Made by a program: the position numbers and the translations under genes
Source of the DNA: Bacteroidota bacterium
Lineage (GTDB): Bacteria; Bacteroidota; Bacteroidia; Cytophagales; Spirosomataceae
NCBI GenBank assembly: GCA_041158445.1
Contig: JBEBBJ010000002.1
Coordinates: 6,672-70,671 of the forward strand
Direction of reading: 5' to 3'
Length of the DNA stretch: 64,000 nt
In this document: positions 28,545 to 35,747 of the stretch, one piece after another
How the letters are laid out: each line of letters begins with the position of its first letter
Position numbering within the stretch: position 1 is the first letter of the stretch
The notes under the pieces: model-generated
Database searches by the model: none
Told to the model about the DNA's origin: nothing
Seen by the model: only the letters and a program-made list of their open reading frames with translations

Positions 28545-29798
28545 ATGAGTACACGGATCGCCATTATAGGCTTAGGATATGTGGGTTTTCCGCTGGCGGT
28601 GGAGTTTGGCAAGAAAATTCCTACGCTCGGCTTTGACATCGACACGAGTCGCATAGCTGAATTAAACACCGGTTTTGATCGCACGCACGAAGTAAAGCCG
28701 GAGCAATTAAAAGCATCGGTTTCTTTGAGCTTTTCATCGAATGCGGCTGATTTAGCGGCCTGCAATACTTTTATTGTAACAGTCCCCACTCCCATCGATC
28801 ACTTCAAAAAGCCGGACTTAAGCCCGCTTTTAAAGGCTTCTGAAATGATCGGAAAAGCCTTGAAAAAAGGTGATTTAGTCATTTACGAATCGACGGTTTA
28901 TCCGGGTTGTACGGAGGAGGATTGTGTTCCTGTTTTGGAGAAATTCTCTGGACTAAAATTCAACGAAGACTTCTTCTGTGGCTACTCGCCAGAACGCATT
29001 AATCCAGGTGACAAGGTAAACACCTTGACCAAAATCAAGAAAGTTACCTCCGGCTCCACACCCGAAATCGCCGAAAAAGTCGACCAATTATACCGCTCCA
29101 TCATCACCGCCGGTACGCACAAAGCGCCTTCGATGAAAGTGGCGGAAGCCAGCAAAGCCATCGAAAATGCCCAACGCGACGTCAATATCTCCTTCGTAAA
29201 CGAGCTAGCCTTGATCTTCGATCGCATGGGCATCGACACGACGGAAGTATTAGAAGCGGCCGGAACGAAGTGGAACTTCCTGAATTTCAAACCCGGCTTA
29301 GTGGGCGGCCATTGCATCGGCGTGGACCCCTATTACTTATTGCACAAGTCCGAAAGCTTAGGCTATTACCCACAGGTGATCCTTTCTGGTCGCCGCGTGA
29401 ATGATAACATGGGTATTTTCGTCGCCAATAAATTAGTCAAATTGTTGATTAATAAAGGCCAAAAAATAGGCGGCGCCAAAACCCTCATGCTCGGCATCAC
29501 CTTCAAAGAAAACTGTCCCGACATCCGCAACTCTCGCGTTGTTGATATCTATAAAGAGCTCGTTGATTTTGGGATGGACGTAGACGTCTATGACCCTTGG
29601 GCAAACGCCGCCGAAGTGAAACACGAACACGGCATCGACTTAGTCACAAAACTAGCTGATCAATACCAGGCGATTGTTTTGACCGTAGCCCACAACGAAT
29701 TTCTAGACCTCCCCTTCGCATCCTTGCGCGCCGAAAACGGGGTCATCTTCGACATCAAATCCATCTTATCCAAAGACTTGGCTGACGCCCGATTATAA
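28545..29798 (+). CDS. Nucleotide-sugar dehydrogenase (TviB/WbpO-like UDP-N-acetyl-hexosamine 6-dehydrogenase family)
   Basis: 417 aa; N-terminal IAIIGLGYVGFPLA Rossmann motif and the catalytic-Cys region GLVGGHCIGVDPYY. Confidence 0.8.
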   Translation: MSTRIAIIGLGYVGFPLAVEFGKKIPTLGFDIDTSRIAELNTGFDRTHEVKPEQLKASVSLSFSSNAADLAACNTFIVTVPTPIDHFKKPDLSPLLKASEMIGKALKKGDLVIYESTVYPGCTEEDCVPVLEKFSGLKFNEDFFCGYSPERINPGDKVNTLTKIKKVTSGSTPEIAEKVDQLYRSIITAGTHKAPSMKVAEASKAIENAQRDVNISFVNELALIFDRMGIDTTEVLEAAGTKWNFLNFKPGLVGGHCIGVDPYYLLHKSESLGYYPQVILSGRRVNDNMGIFVANKLVKLLINKGQKIGGAKTLMLGITFKENCPDIRNSRVVDIYKELVDFGMDVDVYDPWANAAEVKHEHGIDLVTKLADQYQAIVLTVAHNEFLDLPFASLRAENGVIFDIKSILSKDLADARL

Positions 29799-29800
29799 GC

Positions 29801-30283
29801 ATGGCTTGGTACGCGATTTACACGAAATCCAGAATGGAGAAGAAAGTCTCCTTGCGCCTTCAGGAGCTAGGCATCGAAGCCTACTGCCCTACTACGAAGC
29901 GCAAGAAGCAATGGTCTGACCGCAAAAAATGGGTTGAAGAAGTTCTCTTCCGCTCCTACGTTTTCGTTAACATCGACCTTGAAAAGCAAAGTGGCCTAGT
30001 CCGCCGAACCTTCGGAGTCGTTAACTTCGTCTACTGGCTCCACAAACCCGCTGTCATCCAAGATGACGAAATCCTGGCCATCAAACAATTCTTATCCGAC
30101 CACCTCGAAGTCGAAACCATCGGCACCACCGCAAAAGTGGGCGACTACATCACCATCGAATCTGGCCCACTAACCGGCCAAACCGCCAAGATCGTCGGGC
30201 TGAAGAATAAGCACGAGGTGAGGCTTAAGATTGAGAGCCTTGGGTTTGAGCTTGTTGCGGCCCTGCGGGACGCAGGAGAGTAG
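29801..30283 (+). CDS. UpxY-family (NusG-like) transcription antiterminator
   Basis: 160 aa; MAWYAIYTKSRMEKKV.. NGN-like N-terminus and a KOW-like C-terminus (GDYITIESGPLTGQTAKIVG). Confidence 0.8.
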   Translation: MAWYAIYTKSRMEKKVSLRLQELGIEAYCPTTKRKKQWSDRKKWVEEVLFRSYVFVNIDLEKQSGLVRRTFGVVNFVYWLHKPAVIQDDEILAIKQFLSDHLEVETIGTTAKVGDYITIESGPLTGQTAKIVGLKNKHEVRLKIESLGFELVAALRDAGE

Positions 30284-30329
30284 AGATAAGAGATTAGAGA
30301 GAGGAGATAAAAGAGTAGAGATTATAGAT
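30281..30329. repeat. Degenerate heptamer array (TAGAGAT-type), 7 units, starting at the UpxY TAG stop
   Basis: tagagat aagagat tagagag aggagat aaaagag tagagat tatagat, read directly from the sequence. Confidence 0.85.
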
Positions 30330-30413
30330 TGGCTCACTTTATCATCTAAATTACCAATTTCTTGATAGGCTTTCAGGCGCTTCCTGAATAATATTGTCAT
30401 CAAATATTAACCG

Positions 30414-30764
30414 ATGACTATAAGCCCCGCACAAACAAAATCATACGATTTTTCTGTTAAAATGGTTACTCTTTGTCGCAAACTAATGGTTGAGGATAAA
30501 GAATTTGTGCTTAGTCGACAATTATTAAAGTCCGCAACTTCCATAGGAGCAAATATTGAAGAGGCAATTGGCGGCTTTTCTCGTAATGACTTTAAGTACA
30601 AAATTTCTATTTCTTACAAAGAAGCACGCGAATCTAGATATTGGATTCGCTTATTGGTTAGTACTGGATTTATTTCAAAAGAAGAGGGATTCTCGGCCCT
30701 AGCCGATTTAGATGAATTAATGCGAATGCTAATGTCAACCTTGAAGACTTTAAATAGAGTATAG
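30414..30764 (+). CDS. Four-helix-bundle protein (23S rRNA intervening-sequence protein family)
   Basis: 116 aa; ..SRQLLKSATSIGANIEEAIGGFSRNDFKYKISISYKEARESRYWIRLL.. is the characteristic pattern of this family. Confidence 0.8.
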   Translation: MTISPAQTKSYDFSVKMVTLCRKLMVEDKEFVLSRQLLKSATSIGANIEEAIGGFSRNDFKYKISISYKEARESRYWIRLLVSTGFISKEEGFSALADLDELMRMLMSTLKTLNRV

Positions 30765-30768
30765 TTTT

Positions 30769-30853
30769 TAGATTAGAGAGAGTAGAGATTAGAGAGTAAA
30801 GATAAGAGAGAGAAAACCCATCTATACTCTTTACTCTCTAATCTCTACTCTCT
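30769..30853. repeat. Heptamer array folded into a perfect 26-bp inverted repeat (probable bidirectional terminator)
   Basis: Heptamers tagatta gagagag tagagat tagagag taaagat aagagag run from 30769. Left arm 30777-30802 (agagagtagagattagagagtaaaga) is the exact reverse complement of 30828-30853, with a 25-nt loop. It lies between convergent stop codons at 30764 and 30856. Confidence 0.85.
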
Positions 30854-30855
30854 TA

Positions 30856-32091
30856 CTATCCAAAAAACAAATAGCTCACCCCCACCGCTGTAAGGATCCC
30901 CACCAAGTCAGCCGCCAAGCCCGCCCACAGCGTGTAGCGAATATTGCGTACCTGAACGGAGCCGTAGTAAAGGGCGATGACGAAAAGGACGGTTTCTGCG
31001 GAGCCTTGGAAGACGCAAGATAAGCGGCCAGCGAAGGAGTCTGGACCGAAGGTTTTCATCGTGTCGATCATCATGGCGCGGGAACCGCTACCCGAGACTG
31101 GGTGTAAAAGGGCGGTAGGCATCGCGTCTGTGAATCGGTTGTCTATGCCGAAGCTGTTAACGGCGAATTTCATGCCGTCTACGATGAAATCTAAAACACC
31201 GGAATTACGAAGGCAAGAAATGGCAACGAGCATTCCTACGAGGTAGGGAATGATGCGGACGGAGGTTTCGAAGCCTCCTTTGGCGCCTTCGACGAAGGTT
31301 CCGAAAATATCTACTTTCTTATAAAAGGCCGCGGCGATGAAGGAGAAAATGAGGGCGAAAAGGATGCCGTTGCTGAAGAGTTTGGACTGGATATCGATTT
31401 GCTCTTTTGGGAGGCTGCTGAAGTACCATAAGATACCCGCTAAAATGGCGGTGATGCTGAAAAGCCAGCCAAAAAGAACAGGGTCGAAAAGACGTATTTT
31501 TTGCTTGATGGAGACGAAGATTAAACCCGTTATGGTAGCCGCATAGGTGGCCATTAGGCAGGGAATAAAGACGTCAGAGGCATCTTGGGCGCCATAAATG
31601 GCACGCTGTGCCATGATGGAAAGAGGGATTAAAACGGGACCTGCACTGTGGAGCACGAGGAACATGATTTGGGCGTTTGAGGCGGTTTCTTTTTCTGGAT
31701 TGATGTCCTGCAAACCTTGCATCGCTTTTAGACCAAAAGGTGTCGCCGCGTTGTCTAGACCTAACAGGTTCGCGGAGAAGTTCATAATCATTTGGCCATG
31801 AACGGGGTGGTCTTTGGGTACTTCTGGAAAAAGGCGCGAGAAGAAGGGTTGAATTTTGCGGGCTAAAAAGTGGATTGCGCCAGCCTTCTCCCCTACTTGT
31901 AAGATGCCCATGAAGAAGGCCATCACCCCGGTTAGCGGAAGTGCGACTTTCATGACCGCGACTTCAGCGGAGTCAAACATGCCATCGACTAGGACTTTAA
32001 AGATGTCGGCGTTGCCGAAGAAAATGAATTGAATGAGGGCGACGACGAATGCGACACCGAAGAACAAAAACCAAATCCAATTTAAAGCCAT
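30856..32091 (-). CDS. Nucleoside-recognition-domain membrane protein (fused SpmA/SpmB-like)
   Basis: Polytopic membrane protein. Start taken at the internal ATG 32091 (MALNWIWFLFFGVAFVVALIQ..). The family call is from overall pattern only. Confidence 0.55.
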   Translation of the reverse strand: MALNWIWFLFFGVAFVVALIQFIFFGNADIFKVLVDGMFDSAEVAVMKVALPLTGVMAFFMGILQVGEKAGAIHFLARKIQPFFSRLFPEVPKDHPVHGQMIMNFSANLLGLDNAATPFGLKAMQGLQDINPEKETASNAQIMFLVLHSAGPVLIPLSIMAQRAIYGAQDASDVFIPCLMATYAATITGLIFVSIKQKIRLFDPVLFGWLFSITAILAGILWYFSSLPKEQIDIQSKLFSNGILFALIFSFIAAAFYKKVDIFGTFVEGAKGGFETSVRIIPYLVGMLVAISCLRNSGVLDFIVDGMKFAVNSFGIDNRFTDAMPTALLHPVSGSGSRAMMIDTMKTFGPDSFAGRLSCVFQGSAETVLFVIALYYGSVQVRNIRYTLWAGLAADLVGILTAVGVSYLFFG

Positions 32092-32140
32092 AGGTTGACA
32101 GAGGTAAAAAACGATTAAATTTAGGGAAAATTCCGTCAAA

Positions 32141-32824
32141 ATGAAGAGACATTTCGCTAAAGCAGGAATTATCCTACTACTTAGCCTATCCTTAAAAGCA
32201 CAAAAATCGACTTGCGCTGCCGAGCTTTCGATGCAAAAGCAGGGTCTTCAAGAAGTTACCGCGCAGGTTCCGGGTGTGTTAGTCGAATTAAAATATGCGA
32301 CTACTGATAATTTTATGGGCAAGGACGTGTACGGTTGTTTGACGCACGCGTATTTGCAAAAAGAGACGGTGGCGATGTTGAAGAAGGCGCAGGAGAATTT
32401 GGAAAAAGCACATCCTGGTTATCATTTGTTGATTTATGATGCGGCGAGGCCGCTTTCGAAGCAGTGGGAACTTTGGAATACATTGACCCAGTATACGCCT
32501 GAAAAGCGTCGTACGTATGTGGCGGATCCGAAAGAGCATTCGATTCATAATTATGGAAGTGCGATCGATTTAACAGTGGCGGATGAGAAGGGAAAGCCGC
32601 TAGAGATGGGGACGAAATACGATTTTTTTGGTGAAATGGCCTATCCGAAAGAGGAAGCGAGGCTGTTAAAAGCGGGGAAATTGTCGGCTAAGGCTTTGGC
32701 AAATCGCCTCATCCTACGCAAAGCGATGACCCAGGCCGGTTTTATGCCCATCGAATATGAGTGGTGGCATTTTAATGCGTTCTCCCGAAAAGTGGCCAAA
32801 GAAAAATTTCAAGTAATACCCTAA
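32141..32824 (+). CDS. M15-family D-alanyl-D-alanine dipeptidase (VanX/DdpX-like), secreted
   Basis: Signal peptide; SIHNYGSAIDLTV (SxHxxGxAxD) and EWWHF motifs. Confidence 0.75.
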   Translation: MKRHFAKAGIILLLSLSLKAQKSTCAAELSMQKQGLQEVTAQVPGVLVELKYATTDNFMGKDVYGCLTHAYLQKETVAMLKKAQENLEKAHPGYHLLIYDAARPLSKQWELWNTLTQYTPEKRRTYVADPKEHSIHNYGSAIDLTVADEKGKPLEMGTKYDFFGEMAYPKEEARLLKAGKLSAKALANRLILRKAMTQAGFMPIEYEWWHFNAFSRKVAKEKFQVIP

Positions 32825-32922
32825 ACTGCGATTTTATCCTGAACCCTTGCCGTTTATCCTAAAATCAGGAGGGGCTTTCCGGGGAATGTTTACCTTTGCA
32901 TACATTATTTTATTGTCGACCT

Positions 32923-34275
32923 ATGTACTTAAAAATAGTTAGTCTTACCTCCCTCCTTTTCGTTAGCGGAATGCAGGTGAATGCTCAGAGCGCTTCGGCG
33001 ATTCAGGCAAACGCAAATACGGTGCAGTTATCGCTTACGAAGGCGGTGGAAATCGCGTTGCAACATAACCTAAACGTGAAGTCGTACGAGGTGAGTTTGC
33101 GCAATGCACAATTGCAATTTCAGCAGTCTAAGAACAATGCGCTGCCTAATTTAAGTGCGAATATTAATCAGTCGGCGAGTTTTGGCCGTAGTATTAACCC
33201 CTTCACGAACGGTTACGATTCGCGAAATATCAATTACAATAACTTAGGTTTAAACGCGGGAATGCTTCTTTTTAATGGAGGCCAAATCCGTAACACGGTT
33301 CTCCAGAACGATTATAATCTAAAGGCATCGCAAGAAGATTTAGCGTCCATCAAGGAAAACATTTCCCTGCAAGTCGTGCTTTCGTATTTAGCGATTCTGA
33401 ATTCAGAAGATCAATTAAGCATCGCAAAGACGCAAACAGAGATCACGAAATTACAGATTACCCGCACCGAAAAATTAGTTAATGCGGGCTCTTTAGCCCC
33501 ATCCAACCTATTGGATTTGAAGGCGCAATTAGCGAGTGAAGAGTCGAATGTGGTGAATTTCCAGAGCTCTTTGGACCTAAATAAACTGACTTTACTTCAA
33601 TTATTGAATGATTCGAGCATCACGGCGATCGAATTACAGCGCATTCAAGTTCCTGCGCCTAGTTCGAGTGGCTATGATACGGGAATAGAGGATTTATATG
33701 CCAAAGCCCTAGCGATTCAACCCCTCGTAAAGGCGGCTGACTTACGCGTTCAGAGTGCATTAAAAGGCATTTCGGTTGCGAAAGCAGGAACACTACCTAC
33801 CCTATCCTTTAGCGCGAGCATGTCGGCTAACCAGTCAAATGCGTTAACGATGGGCTATTTTGATCAGCTAAATAACACCCAAAACAAGGTGCTTTCTTTA
33901 GGCTTAAACATCCCTATTTTTACGCGATTTGCAGCTAAAACAAGAATTGCTCAAGCAGGTTTACAACGCGAGAACGCTTCCATTGAAGCAGCAAAAGCAC
34001 GCCAAAACTTGCGTCAAAACATCGAGCAAGCTTACGTGAACTTAAATAATGCAGCGATGAAATATGAGGCAGGCCTTTCACAGGTATCTGCTTTAGAAGA
34101 ATCCTTCCGCGCGGCTGAGAGCCGTTTTGGGGCTGGAACCATTGACTTCGTGAGCTATAACTTACAAAAAACGAATTTAGATAAAGCGCGCTTGAGCTTG
34201 ATTCAATCGAAATACGACTTCGTGTTTAGAACGAAGATTTTGGATTTTTATCAGGGGAAAAGCTTAACCTTTTAG
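32923..34275 (+). CDS. TolC-family outer-membrane efflux protein
   Basis: Signal peptide MYLKIVSLTSLLFVSGMQVNAQ. Two-fold repeated coiled-coil/beta pattern typical of TolC (LSLTKAVEIALQHNLNVK..). Confidence 0.8.
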   Translation: MYLKIVSLTSLLFVSGMQVNAQSASAIQANANTVQLSLTKAVEIALQHNLNVKSYEVSLRNAQLQFQQSKNNALPNLSANINQSASFGRSINPFTNGYDSRNINYNNLGLNAGMLLFNGGQIRNTVLQNDYNLKASQEDLASIKENISLQVVLSYLAILNSEDQLSIAKTQTEITKLQITRTEKLVNAGSLAPSNLLDLKAQLASEESNVVNFQSSLDLNKLTLLQLLNDSSITAIELQRIQVPAPSSSGYDTGIEDLYAKALAIQPLVKAADLRVQSALKGISVAKAGTLPTLSFSASMSANQSNALTMGYFDQLNNTQNKVLSLGLNIPIFTRFAAKTRIAQAGLQRENASIEAAKARQNLRQNIEQAYVNLNNAAMKYEAGLSQVSALEESFRAAESRFGAGTIDFVSYNLQKTNLDKARLSLIQSKYDFVFRTKILDFYQGKSLTF

Positions 34276-34349
34276 ATTAGAGATTATAGAGTAGAGAGTA
34301 TAGATAAAATCTGCTAGCGACTGGCGACTGGCGACTATTGACTAAAATT
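34273..34349. repeat. Degenerate heptamer array filling the whole TolC-HlyD intergenic spacer (11 x 7 nt)
   Basis: tagatta gagatta tagagta gagagta tagataa aatctgc tagcgac tggcgac tggcgac tattgac taaaatt. It runs from the TAG stop (34273) exactly to the ATG at 34350. Confidence 0.8.
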
Positions 34350-35747
34350 ATGGCAACAAACAACAACAGTAAGCGGACTTGGATGATCATCGGAGGCGCG
34401 GTGGTATTAATTTTTGGTGGATTATTTCTAGCCAAAAAAATGGAGTGGATCGGCAAGGTCGAGCCTACGGAAGTAGAATTCGCGAAGGCGTCTCGTTCGA
34501 CGATCATTGAAAAGGTTTCAGCGTCTGGAAAGATCCAGCCAGAGGTAGAGGTGAAATTATCACCGGACGTTTCTGGGGAGATTGTTTCCTTGAACGTGGC
34601 GGAAGGCGATTCAGTAGTAGCTGGACAGGAATTATTGAAGATTCGTCCAGATAACTATGTGTCTCTTTTAGCACGTGCGGAAGCTCAAATGAATGCTACG
34701 AAGGCAAACATGGAGCAAAGCAAGGCGGTGTTAGCCCAAAGCGAAGCACGTCTTTCGAAAGCGAAAATCGACTACGATCGTAACGCGAAATTGCACAAGG
34801 ACAAGGTGATTTCTGATGCAGATTTTGACCAATTCGTATCGGCTTATACGGTAGCTAAACAAGATTTAGAGGCGGCAAAAGCAAACGTGAATGCAGCTAA
34901 CTACAACGTGAAATCGTCTCAGGCGACCTTGAAAGAAGCAAAAACGAACTTAACGAAGACGACGATTTATGCTCCCCAAAGCGGTATCATCTCGAAGTTG
35001 AACGTTGAATTAGGTGAGCGTGTGGTAGGTACTTCGCAGATGGCGGGTACGGAAATGTTGCGTATCGCGAACTTGAATAAAATGGAAGTGCGCGTGAATG
35101 TAAACGAAAATGACATCACACGTGTGAGCATCGGTGATACGGTGTTAATTGATGTAGATGCCTTCTCTTCTAGCGAGCGTAAGTTCAAAGGGGTTGTTTA
35201 TGAGATCGCGAGTTCAGCGAATTCAAGTGGAACGGCTTCTGCAGTTTCAAATGATGCGGTGACGGAATTCGAAGTAAAGATTCGTGTTTTGCGTTCTTCT
35301 TATGCAGACTTAATCAAGGGTAAATTATCGTATCCATTAAAGCCGGGAATGACGGCGTCTGTGGAGATTTTGACAAACAGAAAGGACAATACCTTAACGG
35401 TTCCATTATCGTCTGTGACAACGCGTGAAATAGGTGCAGTAGCAGAGGGTGAGAAGAAAGAGGAGGATGGAACGAATTCGACGAATGCGAATGATGCTTT
35501 GGAGGCCAAAAAACGCAAGGAAAACACCAAAGAAGTCGTTTTTGTAATGGAAAAAGGCAAAGCGAAGATGATCCAAGTGAAAACAGGCATCTCAGATTTC
35601 GAAAACATCGAAATTGTATCTGGCTTGAAAGACGGTCAAGAGATCATCGCAGGTCCATACGCGACAGTAGCTAAGAAGTTGAAAGAAGGAGACTTAGTGA
35701 AGAAAAAGGATCCGAAAGCAGCAGAAAAGGCCGCTGACAAGAAATAA
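34350..35747 (+). CDS. Efflux-pump periplasmic adaptor (HlyD/MacA family)
   Basis: N-terminal TM anchor, biotinyl/lipoyl-like hairpin (VSGEIVSLNVAEGDSVVAGQELLKI), long coiled coil and a beta-barrel region. Confidence 0.8.
   Translation: MATNNNSKRTWMIIGGAVVLIFGGLFLAKKMEWIGKVEPTEVEFAKASRSTIIEKVSASGKIQPEVEVKLSPDVSGEIVSLNVAEGDSVVAGQELLKIRPDNYVSLLARAEAQMNATKANMEQSKAVLAQSEARLSKAKIDYDRNAKLHKDKVISDADFDQFVSAYTVAKQDLEAAKANVNAANYNVKSSQATLKEAKTNLTKTTIYAPQSGIISKLNVELGERVVGTSQMAGTEMLRIANLNKMEVRVNVNENDITRVSIGDTVLIDVDAFSSSERKFKGVVYEIASSANSSGTASAVSNDAVTEFEVKIRVLRSSYADLIKGKLSYPLKPGMTASVEILTNRKDNTLTVPLSSVTTREIGAVAEGEKKEEDGTNSTNANDALEAKKRKENTKEVVFVMEKGKAKMIQVKTGISDFENIEIVSGLKDGQEIIAGPYATVAKKLKEGDLVKKKDPKAAEKAADKK

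Follow-up and report, generated by a model that had tools for sequence, protein, structure and literature searches.

A four-helix-bundle gene between inverted heptamer arrays at a variable site in Aquirufa: a candidate counterpart of the 23S rRNA intervening sequences outside rRNA

The intervening sequences (IVSs) of bacterial 23S rRNA, known from Leptospira (Ralph and McClelland, 1993, as cited in PMC4990558) and from other bacteria, are the described systems that most closely resemble the element considered here. In the helix-45 IVS of Coxiella burnetii, tandem GACAGAT heptamers stand directly 5' of the S23p open reading frame (ORF) in two or three copies depending on the strain, and the first of these repeats has an RNase III cleavage site at its start (Warrier et al., 2016, PMC4990558). 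In this article, we describe an element of similar design in a 64,000-nt stretch of a Spirosomataceae genome (Bacteroidota; assembly GCA_041158445.1, contig JBEBBJ010000002.1, positions 6,672 to 70,671 of the forward strand), hereafter called the window. The element consists of a gene for a small four-helix-bundle (4HB) protein of the 23S rRNA IVS protein family, preceded by a short leader and bracketed by arrays of a tandem 7-nt unit. With a probability of roughly 0.55, we suggest that it represents an IVS-type cassette located outside rRNA, the arms of which are recombination-prone inverted repeats at the DNA level and probably stem-forming processing sites at the RNA level.

Tandem heptamers also occur in bacterial genomes outside rRNA. 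The short tandemly repeated repetitive (STRR) heptamers of cyanobacteria were reportedly described by Mazel et al. in 1990. Further examples are the TAACTGA repeats of Beggiatoaceae, cyanobacteria and Bacteroidetes (PMC4679880), the GGGNATC repeats of Xanthomonas and Nostoc, which form 70-75 convergent inverted pairs in Xanthomonas (PMC4692102), and the heptanucleotide elements of Geobacter (PMC2700814). Like the arrays in the window, the named families consist of intergenic 7-nt tandem units next to start or stop codons, with variable copy number, convergent pairs and evidence of transcription, but those of the present locus enclose one particular gene and match each other in pairs. The unit in the window, A[AGT]AGA[GT][AGT], is different from the CCCCAGT, TTGGTCA, CAACAGT, TAACTGA and GGGNATC units of the named families. 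The last three papers do not tie the arrays to a gene family, and no printed link between heptamers and PF05635, the family of the 4HB protein, was found in the full-text literature besides the Coxiella IVS.

The 4HB gene and its arms

The 4HB gene (30414..30764, forward strand) encodes a protein of 116 amino acids that belongs to PF05635 (82.5 bits, cut-off 33.8, residues 8-107) and to TIGR02436 (93.9 bits, cut-off 24, residues 8-113), and its nearest solved structure is 2rld_A (E-value 1.5e-24). The resemblance to the IVS protein and to Avd of diversity-generating retroelements (DGRs), which had been pointed out in the original prediction for this locus, is thus correct at the family level. 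There was no match for the protein in PADLOC or PHROGs, and no nuclease or recombinase motif could be recognised in it by profile searches. Metatranscriptome contigs cover positions 30277-30718, which shows transcription of the gene or, as a minimum, its presence in RNA libraries.

The arrays have periods of 7, 14 and 21 nt according to Tandem Repeats Finder, and a lag-7 scan agrees. The outer left arm is a solo forward array, F1 (30275..30330, forward strand), which runs for seven units from the TAG stop of the upstream gene at 30281 and reads GGAGAGT, AGAGATA, AGAGATT, AGAGAGA, GGAGATA, AAAGAGT, AGAGATT and ATAGATT. Downstream of the gene, repeat scans identified an inner forward array, F2 (30769..30811, forward strand), and an array in reverse orientation, R2 (30819..30853, reverse strand), which ends 2 nt before the stop of the convergent neighbour. 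R2 can pair either with F2, as a local hairpin, or with F1, with the gene in the loop. The F2 pairing includes an exact reverse complement, a perfect 26-bp stem with a 25-nt loop (30777-30802/30828-30853), which extends to 33 nt at 91% complementarity (30777-30809/30821-30853); the hairpin folds at -50 kcal/mol, compared with -19.8 +/- 3.1 for shuffled sequences (z = -9.7). F1 is complementary to the same far arm over 33 nt at 82% (30276-30308 with 30820-30852), at a distance of 511 nt, and the duplex energies were -42.9 kcal/mol for F1-R2 versus -47.9 kcal/mol for F2-R2. Both arms and a long closing stem, the complementary termini expected of an IVS, are therefore present, and the gene, the flanking arrays and the exact 26-bp stem are all found as the original prediction had reported them. 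The 12-mer AGAGATTAGAGA, with at most two mismatches, has 18 matches in the window versus 6.3 +/- 2.3 expected (18 was reached in 0 of 100 shuffles), and 17 of the 18 fall in three intergenic spots, namely upstream of the 4HB gene, downstream of it and at 34273. The Rfam database held no family for the hairpin structure, only look-alikes of microRNA precursors below the threshold.

Between F1 and the gene lies a leader of 83 nt (30331..30413, forward strand) that is 96-99% identical between strains with flanks that are about 90% identical. It contains the boxes TTGATAGGC at 30362-30370 and TAATATTG at 30389-30396, and the place of the latter is occupied by TAGTTTTG / TAATCTTG / TAACCTTG in the homologous leaders of the two other allele classes described below (B and C). 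The -7 promoter motif of the Bacteroidota is TAnnTTTG. The resemblance of TAATATTG and its counterparts in B and C to this box suggests that the cassette may have a promoter of its own, located 3' of the left arm.

The likeness to the 23S IVS lies in the ORF of the same protein family, its sense orientation relative to the host transcript and the complementary termini that give a long stem. With the IVS of Coxiella, the element moreover shares strain-variable heptamers directly upstream of the ORF and a sporadic distribution that suggests horizontal spread. Unlike the IVS, however, it is situated between protein genes and not in an rRNA helix: its neighbours are protein-coding, and an Rfam scan of 29700-34500 identified no rRNA. 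The arms of the type seen in the window are long arrays on both sides of the gene, the unit varies by locus, and the window has a self-contained hairpin on the right and a solo array on the left. The ORF is under purifying selection here, as described below, whereas it is decaying in Coxiella, and RNase III cleavage, which has been shown for Coxiella, is proposed here by analogy.

The gene to the left encodes an UpxY-family antiterminator (29801..30283, forward strand; NF033644, 132.6 bits, cut-off 100) and is co-directional with the 4HB gene. Its last approximately seven codons and its stop are derived from the repeat, the TAG at 30281 being the first heptamer unit, and a mini-hairpin, CCTGCGGGACGCAGG, lies in the final codons at 30262-30276. 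Homology to the sister lineages L219 and L220 ends at 30261, and the 3' end of upxY has thus been remodelled. The idea that repeats seed at TAG stops is better replaced by the view that the stops are a by-product: ORFs end at the arrays because the units contain TAG or TAA. A role for the arrays in providing stops in all three frames was ruled out, as one frame of F1 has no stop. To the right, a convergent gene for a membrane protein with a Gate domain (SpmA/SpmB-like, nucleoside recognition; 30856..32139, reverse strand; PF07670, 81.7 bits) forms the boundary of the cassette site, and the flank homology to sister lineages restarts at 30857.

Heptamer arrays around the gene family in other bacteria

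The association between gene and arrays was assessed in a sample that was blind to repeats, in which a protein-seeded metagenome scan recovered 80 relatives at 37-64% identity and 69 complete 4HB genes; the results from this sample refer to the subfamily of PF05635 that is closest to the protein in the window. A period-7 array was present in at least one flank of 58 of the 69 genes and in both flanks of 33, and seven was the best period in all 45 strong upstream flanks and in 46 of the 47 strong downstream flanks. In nearly all, the gene follows a forward array and precedes the reverse complement of that array, which often starts in the TAA stop. Downstream arrays followed 47 of 66 4HB genes compared with 3 of 95 other long ORFs in the same loci (p = 2e-21); not a single shuffled flank was positive, and the only positive among 30 flanks in the window was the array at 34273. 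A random distribution of arrays with no enrichment next to 4HB genes, which would have counted against the original prediction, is thus not what is seen.

The arms are furthermore matched to each other within each locus. Their consensus units agree within one base in 28 of 31 loci versus 128 of 930 between-locus pairs (p = 3e-20), and with 23 distinct units among the 31 loci the arms are both locus-specific and mutually complementary, a form of arm covariation. The arrays had been regarded as a single family, which holds for those in the window, but other loci have units of their own. Where both neighbours could be called, the 4HB gene was sense to both in 32 cases and antisense to both in one (p = 8e-9), a bias of 32:1 from which we conclude that the cassette depends on, or must not oppose, host transcription. 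Another 15 cassettes are located at convergent or divergent junctions, as in the window.

A second sample was obtained with a four-unit pattern scan of one genome per species in 8-kb tiles, which is biased to AGAGA-type units, and comprises at least 120 loci. The same layout was seen with other units, such as AGAGAAG in Aequorivita, GATGAAA in Anaerolineae, AGGGTAC in Parcubacteria, and TACGAAT and CAATTAA in Flavobacteriia, and with a purine-rich hairpin in Clostridia. Among the loci listed, 24 adjacent inverted array pairs have loops of 10-60 nt (12 pairs), 100-200 nt (6), 365-479 nt (5) and 1345 nt (1), and three of the five loops of 365-479 nt hold a 4HB gene while two do not. A rule by which loops of about 450 nt always enclose a 4HB gene was thereby ruled out, since the loops of L058 and L099 hold other sequence. 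The 446-nt loop in a Treponema metagenome-assembled genome (MAG; L058, 4202-4726) lacks a 4HB gene and contains terminator-like hairpins as well as a tiny ORF, the tail of which is rich in lysine and arginine, and the 479-nt loop in a Ruminococcus MAG (L099, 3427-3984), likewise free of a 4HB gene, is non-coding with inner repeats of its own.

At two loci (L012, 4857-4916; L055, 2440-2481), the 4HB ORF runs into the downstream array so that the last 10-25 residues are encoded by heptamers. At another (L136), a tRNA-like sequence, GGGTTGTTAGCTCAGTTGG..., directly follows the downstream arm about 60 nt past the 4HB stop, near locus position 1915, and the cassette may there adjoin a tRNA gene. 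In the legend of a figure of the FLSHclust CRISPR survey (PMC10910872), "23S rRNA IVP" is named among the domains with new associations; going by that legend, heptamer arrays may have been mistaken for CRISPR-like repeats, or the link may be real.

The layout crosses phylum borders and is the usual one for this protein subfamily. The relation is asymmetric, as 4HB genes are nearly always armed and arms are often without a gene.

Alleles, orientation and genealogy at the UpxY/Gate site

The exact 4HB protein of the window was identified on contigs from freshwater metagenomes and in Aquirufa sp. 2-BAHN-186B (GCA_045310395.1). Across ten loci with this protein, the gene differs by 0-7 nt, and both arrays vary in the number of units; the pairing of the hairpin varies as well and is imperfect in other strains. 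A stable gene with changing unit counts indicates that the arrays behave as variable-number tandem repeats.

In more distant members of the genus (A. aurantiipilula, A. ecclesiirivi, A. nivalisilvae and a group at 86% identity), the site has no cassette and consists of upxY, wzi (487-494 amino acids) and the convergent Gate gene, with tight spacers that are free of arrays. The wzi gene, which belongs to a capsule assembly family (PF14052), lies between upxY and the Gate gene in these other Aquirufa (L211-L217) and is absent from the site in the clade of the window. Lineages with flank proteins that are 96-98% identical to those of the window (86-88% at the nucleotide level) also have a 4HB gene at this site, but it points in the direction of the Gate gene and is thus inverted relative to the window. 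Two of these (L218 and L221) have a protein that is 83-84% identical, arms of the AGAGATT type and a full hairpin on both sides, whereas three others (L219, which is A. antheringensis, L220 and L222) have a protein that is 66-70% identical and arms of the AAAGCAT type, with structured loops of about 95 nt. The latter loop is a conserved module with two small hairpins, such as TTTCAAAATAGGCTCCGCCCATTTTGA and ATAACCGAAGGTTAT, and it flanks the gene on either side in inverted orientation. L224 and L225 have an allele that is 95% identical, with the orientation and layout of the window. The UpxY/Gate junction thus has at least three classes of alleles, distinguished by orientation, arm unit or both, which we call A (the window), B (L218 and L221) and C (the AAAGCAT-armed lineages). 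A cassette-like insertion had been proposed and a comparison of orthologous upxY loci suggested as a check; both the loci with wzi and no arrays and those with an armed 4HB gene in either orientation or with other arms are in favor of this proposal.

The limits of the rearranged segment can be traced in the comparison of the window with L218, where homology of the flanks extends across the left array as far as 30328 and is found again from 30753, and 30351-30855 matches in reverse. The boundaries of the inverted segment hence lie in the arrays, and the change in orientation is bounded by the arms whichever way it arose.

The genealogy of the cassette is decoupled from that of its flanks. Between the window and L009, the synonymous divergence (dS) is 0.42 for ugd and 0.52 for the Gate gene but only 0.055 for the 4HB gene, with no amino-acid change; the 4HB gene has 4 differences in 351 positions versus 219 in 2490 for the flanks (p = 5e-9). 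The conserved tract comprises the leader and the gene, and the identity drops at both arrays. The comparison with L218 and L219 gives the opposite picture, with a flank dS of 0.73-0.89 and a 4HB gene that is saturated at synonymous sites, the proportions of synonymous and nonsynonymous differences (pS and pN) being 0.84-0.86 and 0.09-0.19. Relative to its flanks, the cassette allele is thus far more recent in one comparison and far more ancient in others, which is the signature of allelic exchange at a fixed site. With pN of 0.09-0.19 versus pS of about 0.85 between alleles, these sequences also indicate purifying selection on the 4HB protein. The cassette-free state with wzi, the sister alleles in opposite orientation or with AAAGCAT arms, and the decoupled genealogy are new at this locus.

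Arrays without a 4HB gene are found elsewhere in the same genomes. In the window, one such array (34273..34306, forward strand; repeat scans) starts at the TAG stop of a TolC gene, and beyond it lie GCGACTG units, which belong to a second family of repeats. The array had been linked to the cassette in the original prediction, a connection that we do not retain because it belongs to a wider population of gene-less arrays in the genus, members of which are also seen on other contigs of the source metagenome. The spacer between TolC and HlyD is a hot spot for repeats: it holds AGAGATT heptamers and GCGACTG units in the window (34273-34349), TAGGTAA-type heptamers from the stop in L217 (630-720) and about 15 mini-hairpins linked by GACTAA over 387 nt in L001 (8845-9231), and it is 20 nt long with no repeats in named Aquirufa species. 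In an Aquirufa MAG (L045, 6150-6650), a module of about 100 bp is repeated in tandem four or more times and combines ACTG-type heptamers with an AGAGTAT-type array and a classical terminator hairpin, AAAAAAGGCGCAATTTGCGCCTTTTTT. Some of the gene-less array hairpins in Aquirufa enclose classical terminators.

Explanations for the armed cassette

We hypothesize that the module, in which inverted arrays of a 7-nt tandem unit enclose a PF05635 gene and its short leader as in the ORF-bearing 23S IVS, acts at two levels. At the DNA level, the arms would serve as inverted repeats, recombination at the arms could flip or exchange the cassette, as the sequence comparisons suggest, and slippage would change the length of the arrays. 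At the RNA level, by analogy with Coxiella, R2 would pair with F2 in a read-through transcript to form the local 26-bp hairpin, and the less favourable R2-F1 pairing would loop out the gene. The long duplex might then be a processing site of the RNase III type or a stem that protects the 3' end, and could keep the convergent transcripts of UpxY and Gate separate from the cassette.

Several observations weigh against this reading, at one or the other level. The metatranscriptome data are assembled contigs, and their ends at the arrays are assembly breaks that are uninformative on processing. The arms have no RNA-level signature, since mismatches of the G:U type (28) versus the A:C type (50) depart from parity in the wrong direction (p = 0.017), and many arm pairs are perfect mirror copies with irregular units included, so that copying at the DNA level fits at least as well as selection at the RNA level. 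Because the -7-like box lies 3' of F1, the cassette's own mRNA may lack the left arm, and the predicted minimum in the window is the local hairpin, not the fold with the gene in the loop. As for recombination, no direct repeat is visible by eye outside the arms and no target-site duplication was seen; there is no recombinase or transposase within 5 kb of the gene in ten strains. All ten strains have a single orientation, and neither an inverted form, an excised form nor a strand-switch joint was found in them or in the DNA contigs of four metagenomes. One metagenome joint that skips 530 nt was considered as an excision and rejected, as it has sides of 21 nt and represents another gene-less hairpin locus. 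Given the synonymous saturation between alleles A and B, the opposite orientation may have arisen either through a flip in place or because an incoming cassette replaced the resident one. No paralogous cassettes at other Aquirufa loci were found in the 17 closest protein clusters for which a position could be assigned; all close protein relatives are at one locus, which gives no sign of movement to new sites. Finally, same-unit arrays without a 4HB gene are common in Aquirufa (L045, L048, L060, L064), as solo arrays or short-loop hairpins, and among the matches listed a 4HB gene is present in 7 of 120 loci with AGAGA-type arrays, drawn from all phyla, and directly abutted by the array in four.

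The last two observations are also what one would expect if the arrays were a lineage-specific, STRR-like family of simple-sequence repeats spread by slippage, with the 4HB gene there by chance. The different repeat families that fill the TolC-HlyD spacer in different lineages and the heptamer arrays described without a gene link in Beggiatoaceae, cyanobacteria, Bacteroidetes, Xanthomonas and Geobacter fit this picture too. Yet a chance neighbour explains neither an enrichment on the side of the gene that crosses phyla, nor arm-matched units specific to each locus, nor the 32:1 rule of orientation, and the four of 120 listed loci with a 4HB gene within about 100 bp are far above chance for a gene family of 350 bp. 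A different arm unit moreover comes with a different protein allele in the sister lineages, and we consider this explanation distinctly improbable. A purely local role, in which the 26-bp hairpin ends transcription in both directions or stabilises 3' ends where the 4HB and Gate genes converge, and the other arrays are incidental, appears rather improbable. The hairpin is extremely stable and lies exactly between the convergent stops at 30764 and 30856, and the gene-less hairpins of L048 and L064 are also found at gene ends, where some enclose classical terminators. However, on both strands T5 stands before it and A6 after it, the opposite of what an intrinsic terminator has, with no U-tract after the stem on either strand, and a consensus terminator scan made no call at the arrays or the hairpin. 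The hairpin, for which the original prediction had raised a terminator function, is thus not a canonical intrinsic terminator. The stem is asymmetric in purines and pyrimidines, poor in G+C and 26-33 bp long; in most relatives the whole gene separates the arms and there is no local hairpin; and the upstream array as well as the association across phyla are left without an explanation.

It is also conceivable, if unlikely, that the arrays are binding sites of the 4HB protein, which forms a pentameric toroid in solved relatives, each lineage having its own 7-nt word, for autoregulation or for a maintenance and spread similar to that of the repetitive extragenic palindromes (REPs) and their associated tyrosine transposases (RAYTs). 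At one locus, a change of protein allele goes along with a change of arm unit (AGAGATT in A and B, AAAGCAT in C), the units are specific to each locus, and the same genome also has scattered arrays of the cassette's unit that come without a gene. In the literature, the related Avd binds a reverse transcriptase and its RNA, and a Xanthomonas homologue is a pentamer. Against binding sites speak the shared arm unit of alleles A and B, the proteins of which are just 83% identical, the lack of a recognisable nuclease or recombinase motif, and the judgement of the Coxiella authors that S23p is probably not expressed (PMC4990558). We give hardly any credence to the idea that the gene is the Avd of a DGR and the repeats are remnants of its template and variable repeats. 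Homology to Avd and a common four-helix-bundle fold are its basis, but in ten strains the genes called up to 5 kb to the left and right include no reverse transcriptase family (RVT), tandem arrays of 7-nt units are found in place of a template/variable pair of about 100 nt, and the PHROG and PADLOC searches gave no match; the gene content of the locus contradicts this idea.

Comparisons with two other classes of elements help to delimit the IVS-type cassette that we favor. As in invertons, inverted repeats flank a segment the size of a gene that occurs in either orientation in close relatives and has its boundaries within the repeats, but the defining features of an inverton, both orientations in one population and an invertase, were not found here: there is no adjacent invertase, the orientation is fixed per lineage, and the two orientations are deeply diverged alleles. 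REPs, the bacterial interspersed mosaic elements (BIMEs) that they form, their RAYTs, and MITEs, small transposable elements with inverted repeats, are similarly short, dispersed, hairpin-forming repeats at gene ends, some copies of which have a single small gene as a possible master. By contrast, the 4HB protein has no HUH or transposase motif, the arms consist of tandem 7-mers and not of a fixed palindrome, and neither a target duplication nor, in Aquirufa, a second cassette locus was seen. A broader and rather doubtful extension is that 4HB genes and heptamer hairpins form one genetic system, in which the protein would recognise or maintain its own arms, the cassette would be exchanged, flip or now and then be transplanted between transcribed junctions, including rRNA helices, and the gene-less arrays of the same unit would be footprints or satellites, as REPs are to RAYTs.

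Two puzzles have persisted for about 30 years, the ORF of the 23S IVS and the excess of heptamer repeats in some phyla, and the module is seen here outside rRNA. A single genetic system, if true, would explain both together. The UpxY/Gate site represents a natural experiment in a culturable freshwater genus, with a cassette-free state, either orientation and either of two arm units at one site, and with one cassette allele that has recently spread across lineages with flanks that have diverged by about 10%. The Aquirufa variants turn RNase III sites, the binding of the protein to its arms, and arm-driven inversion or exchange into testable questions.

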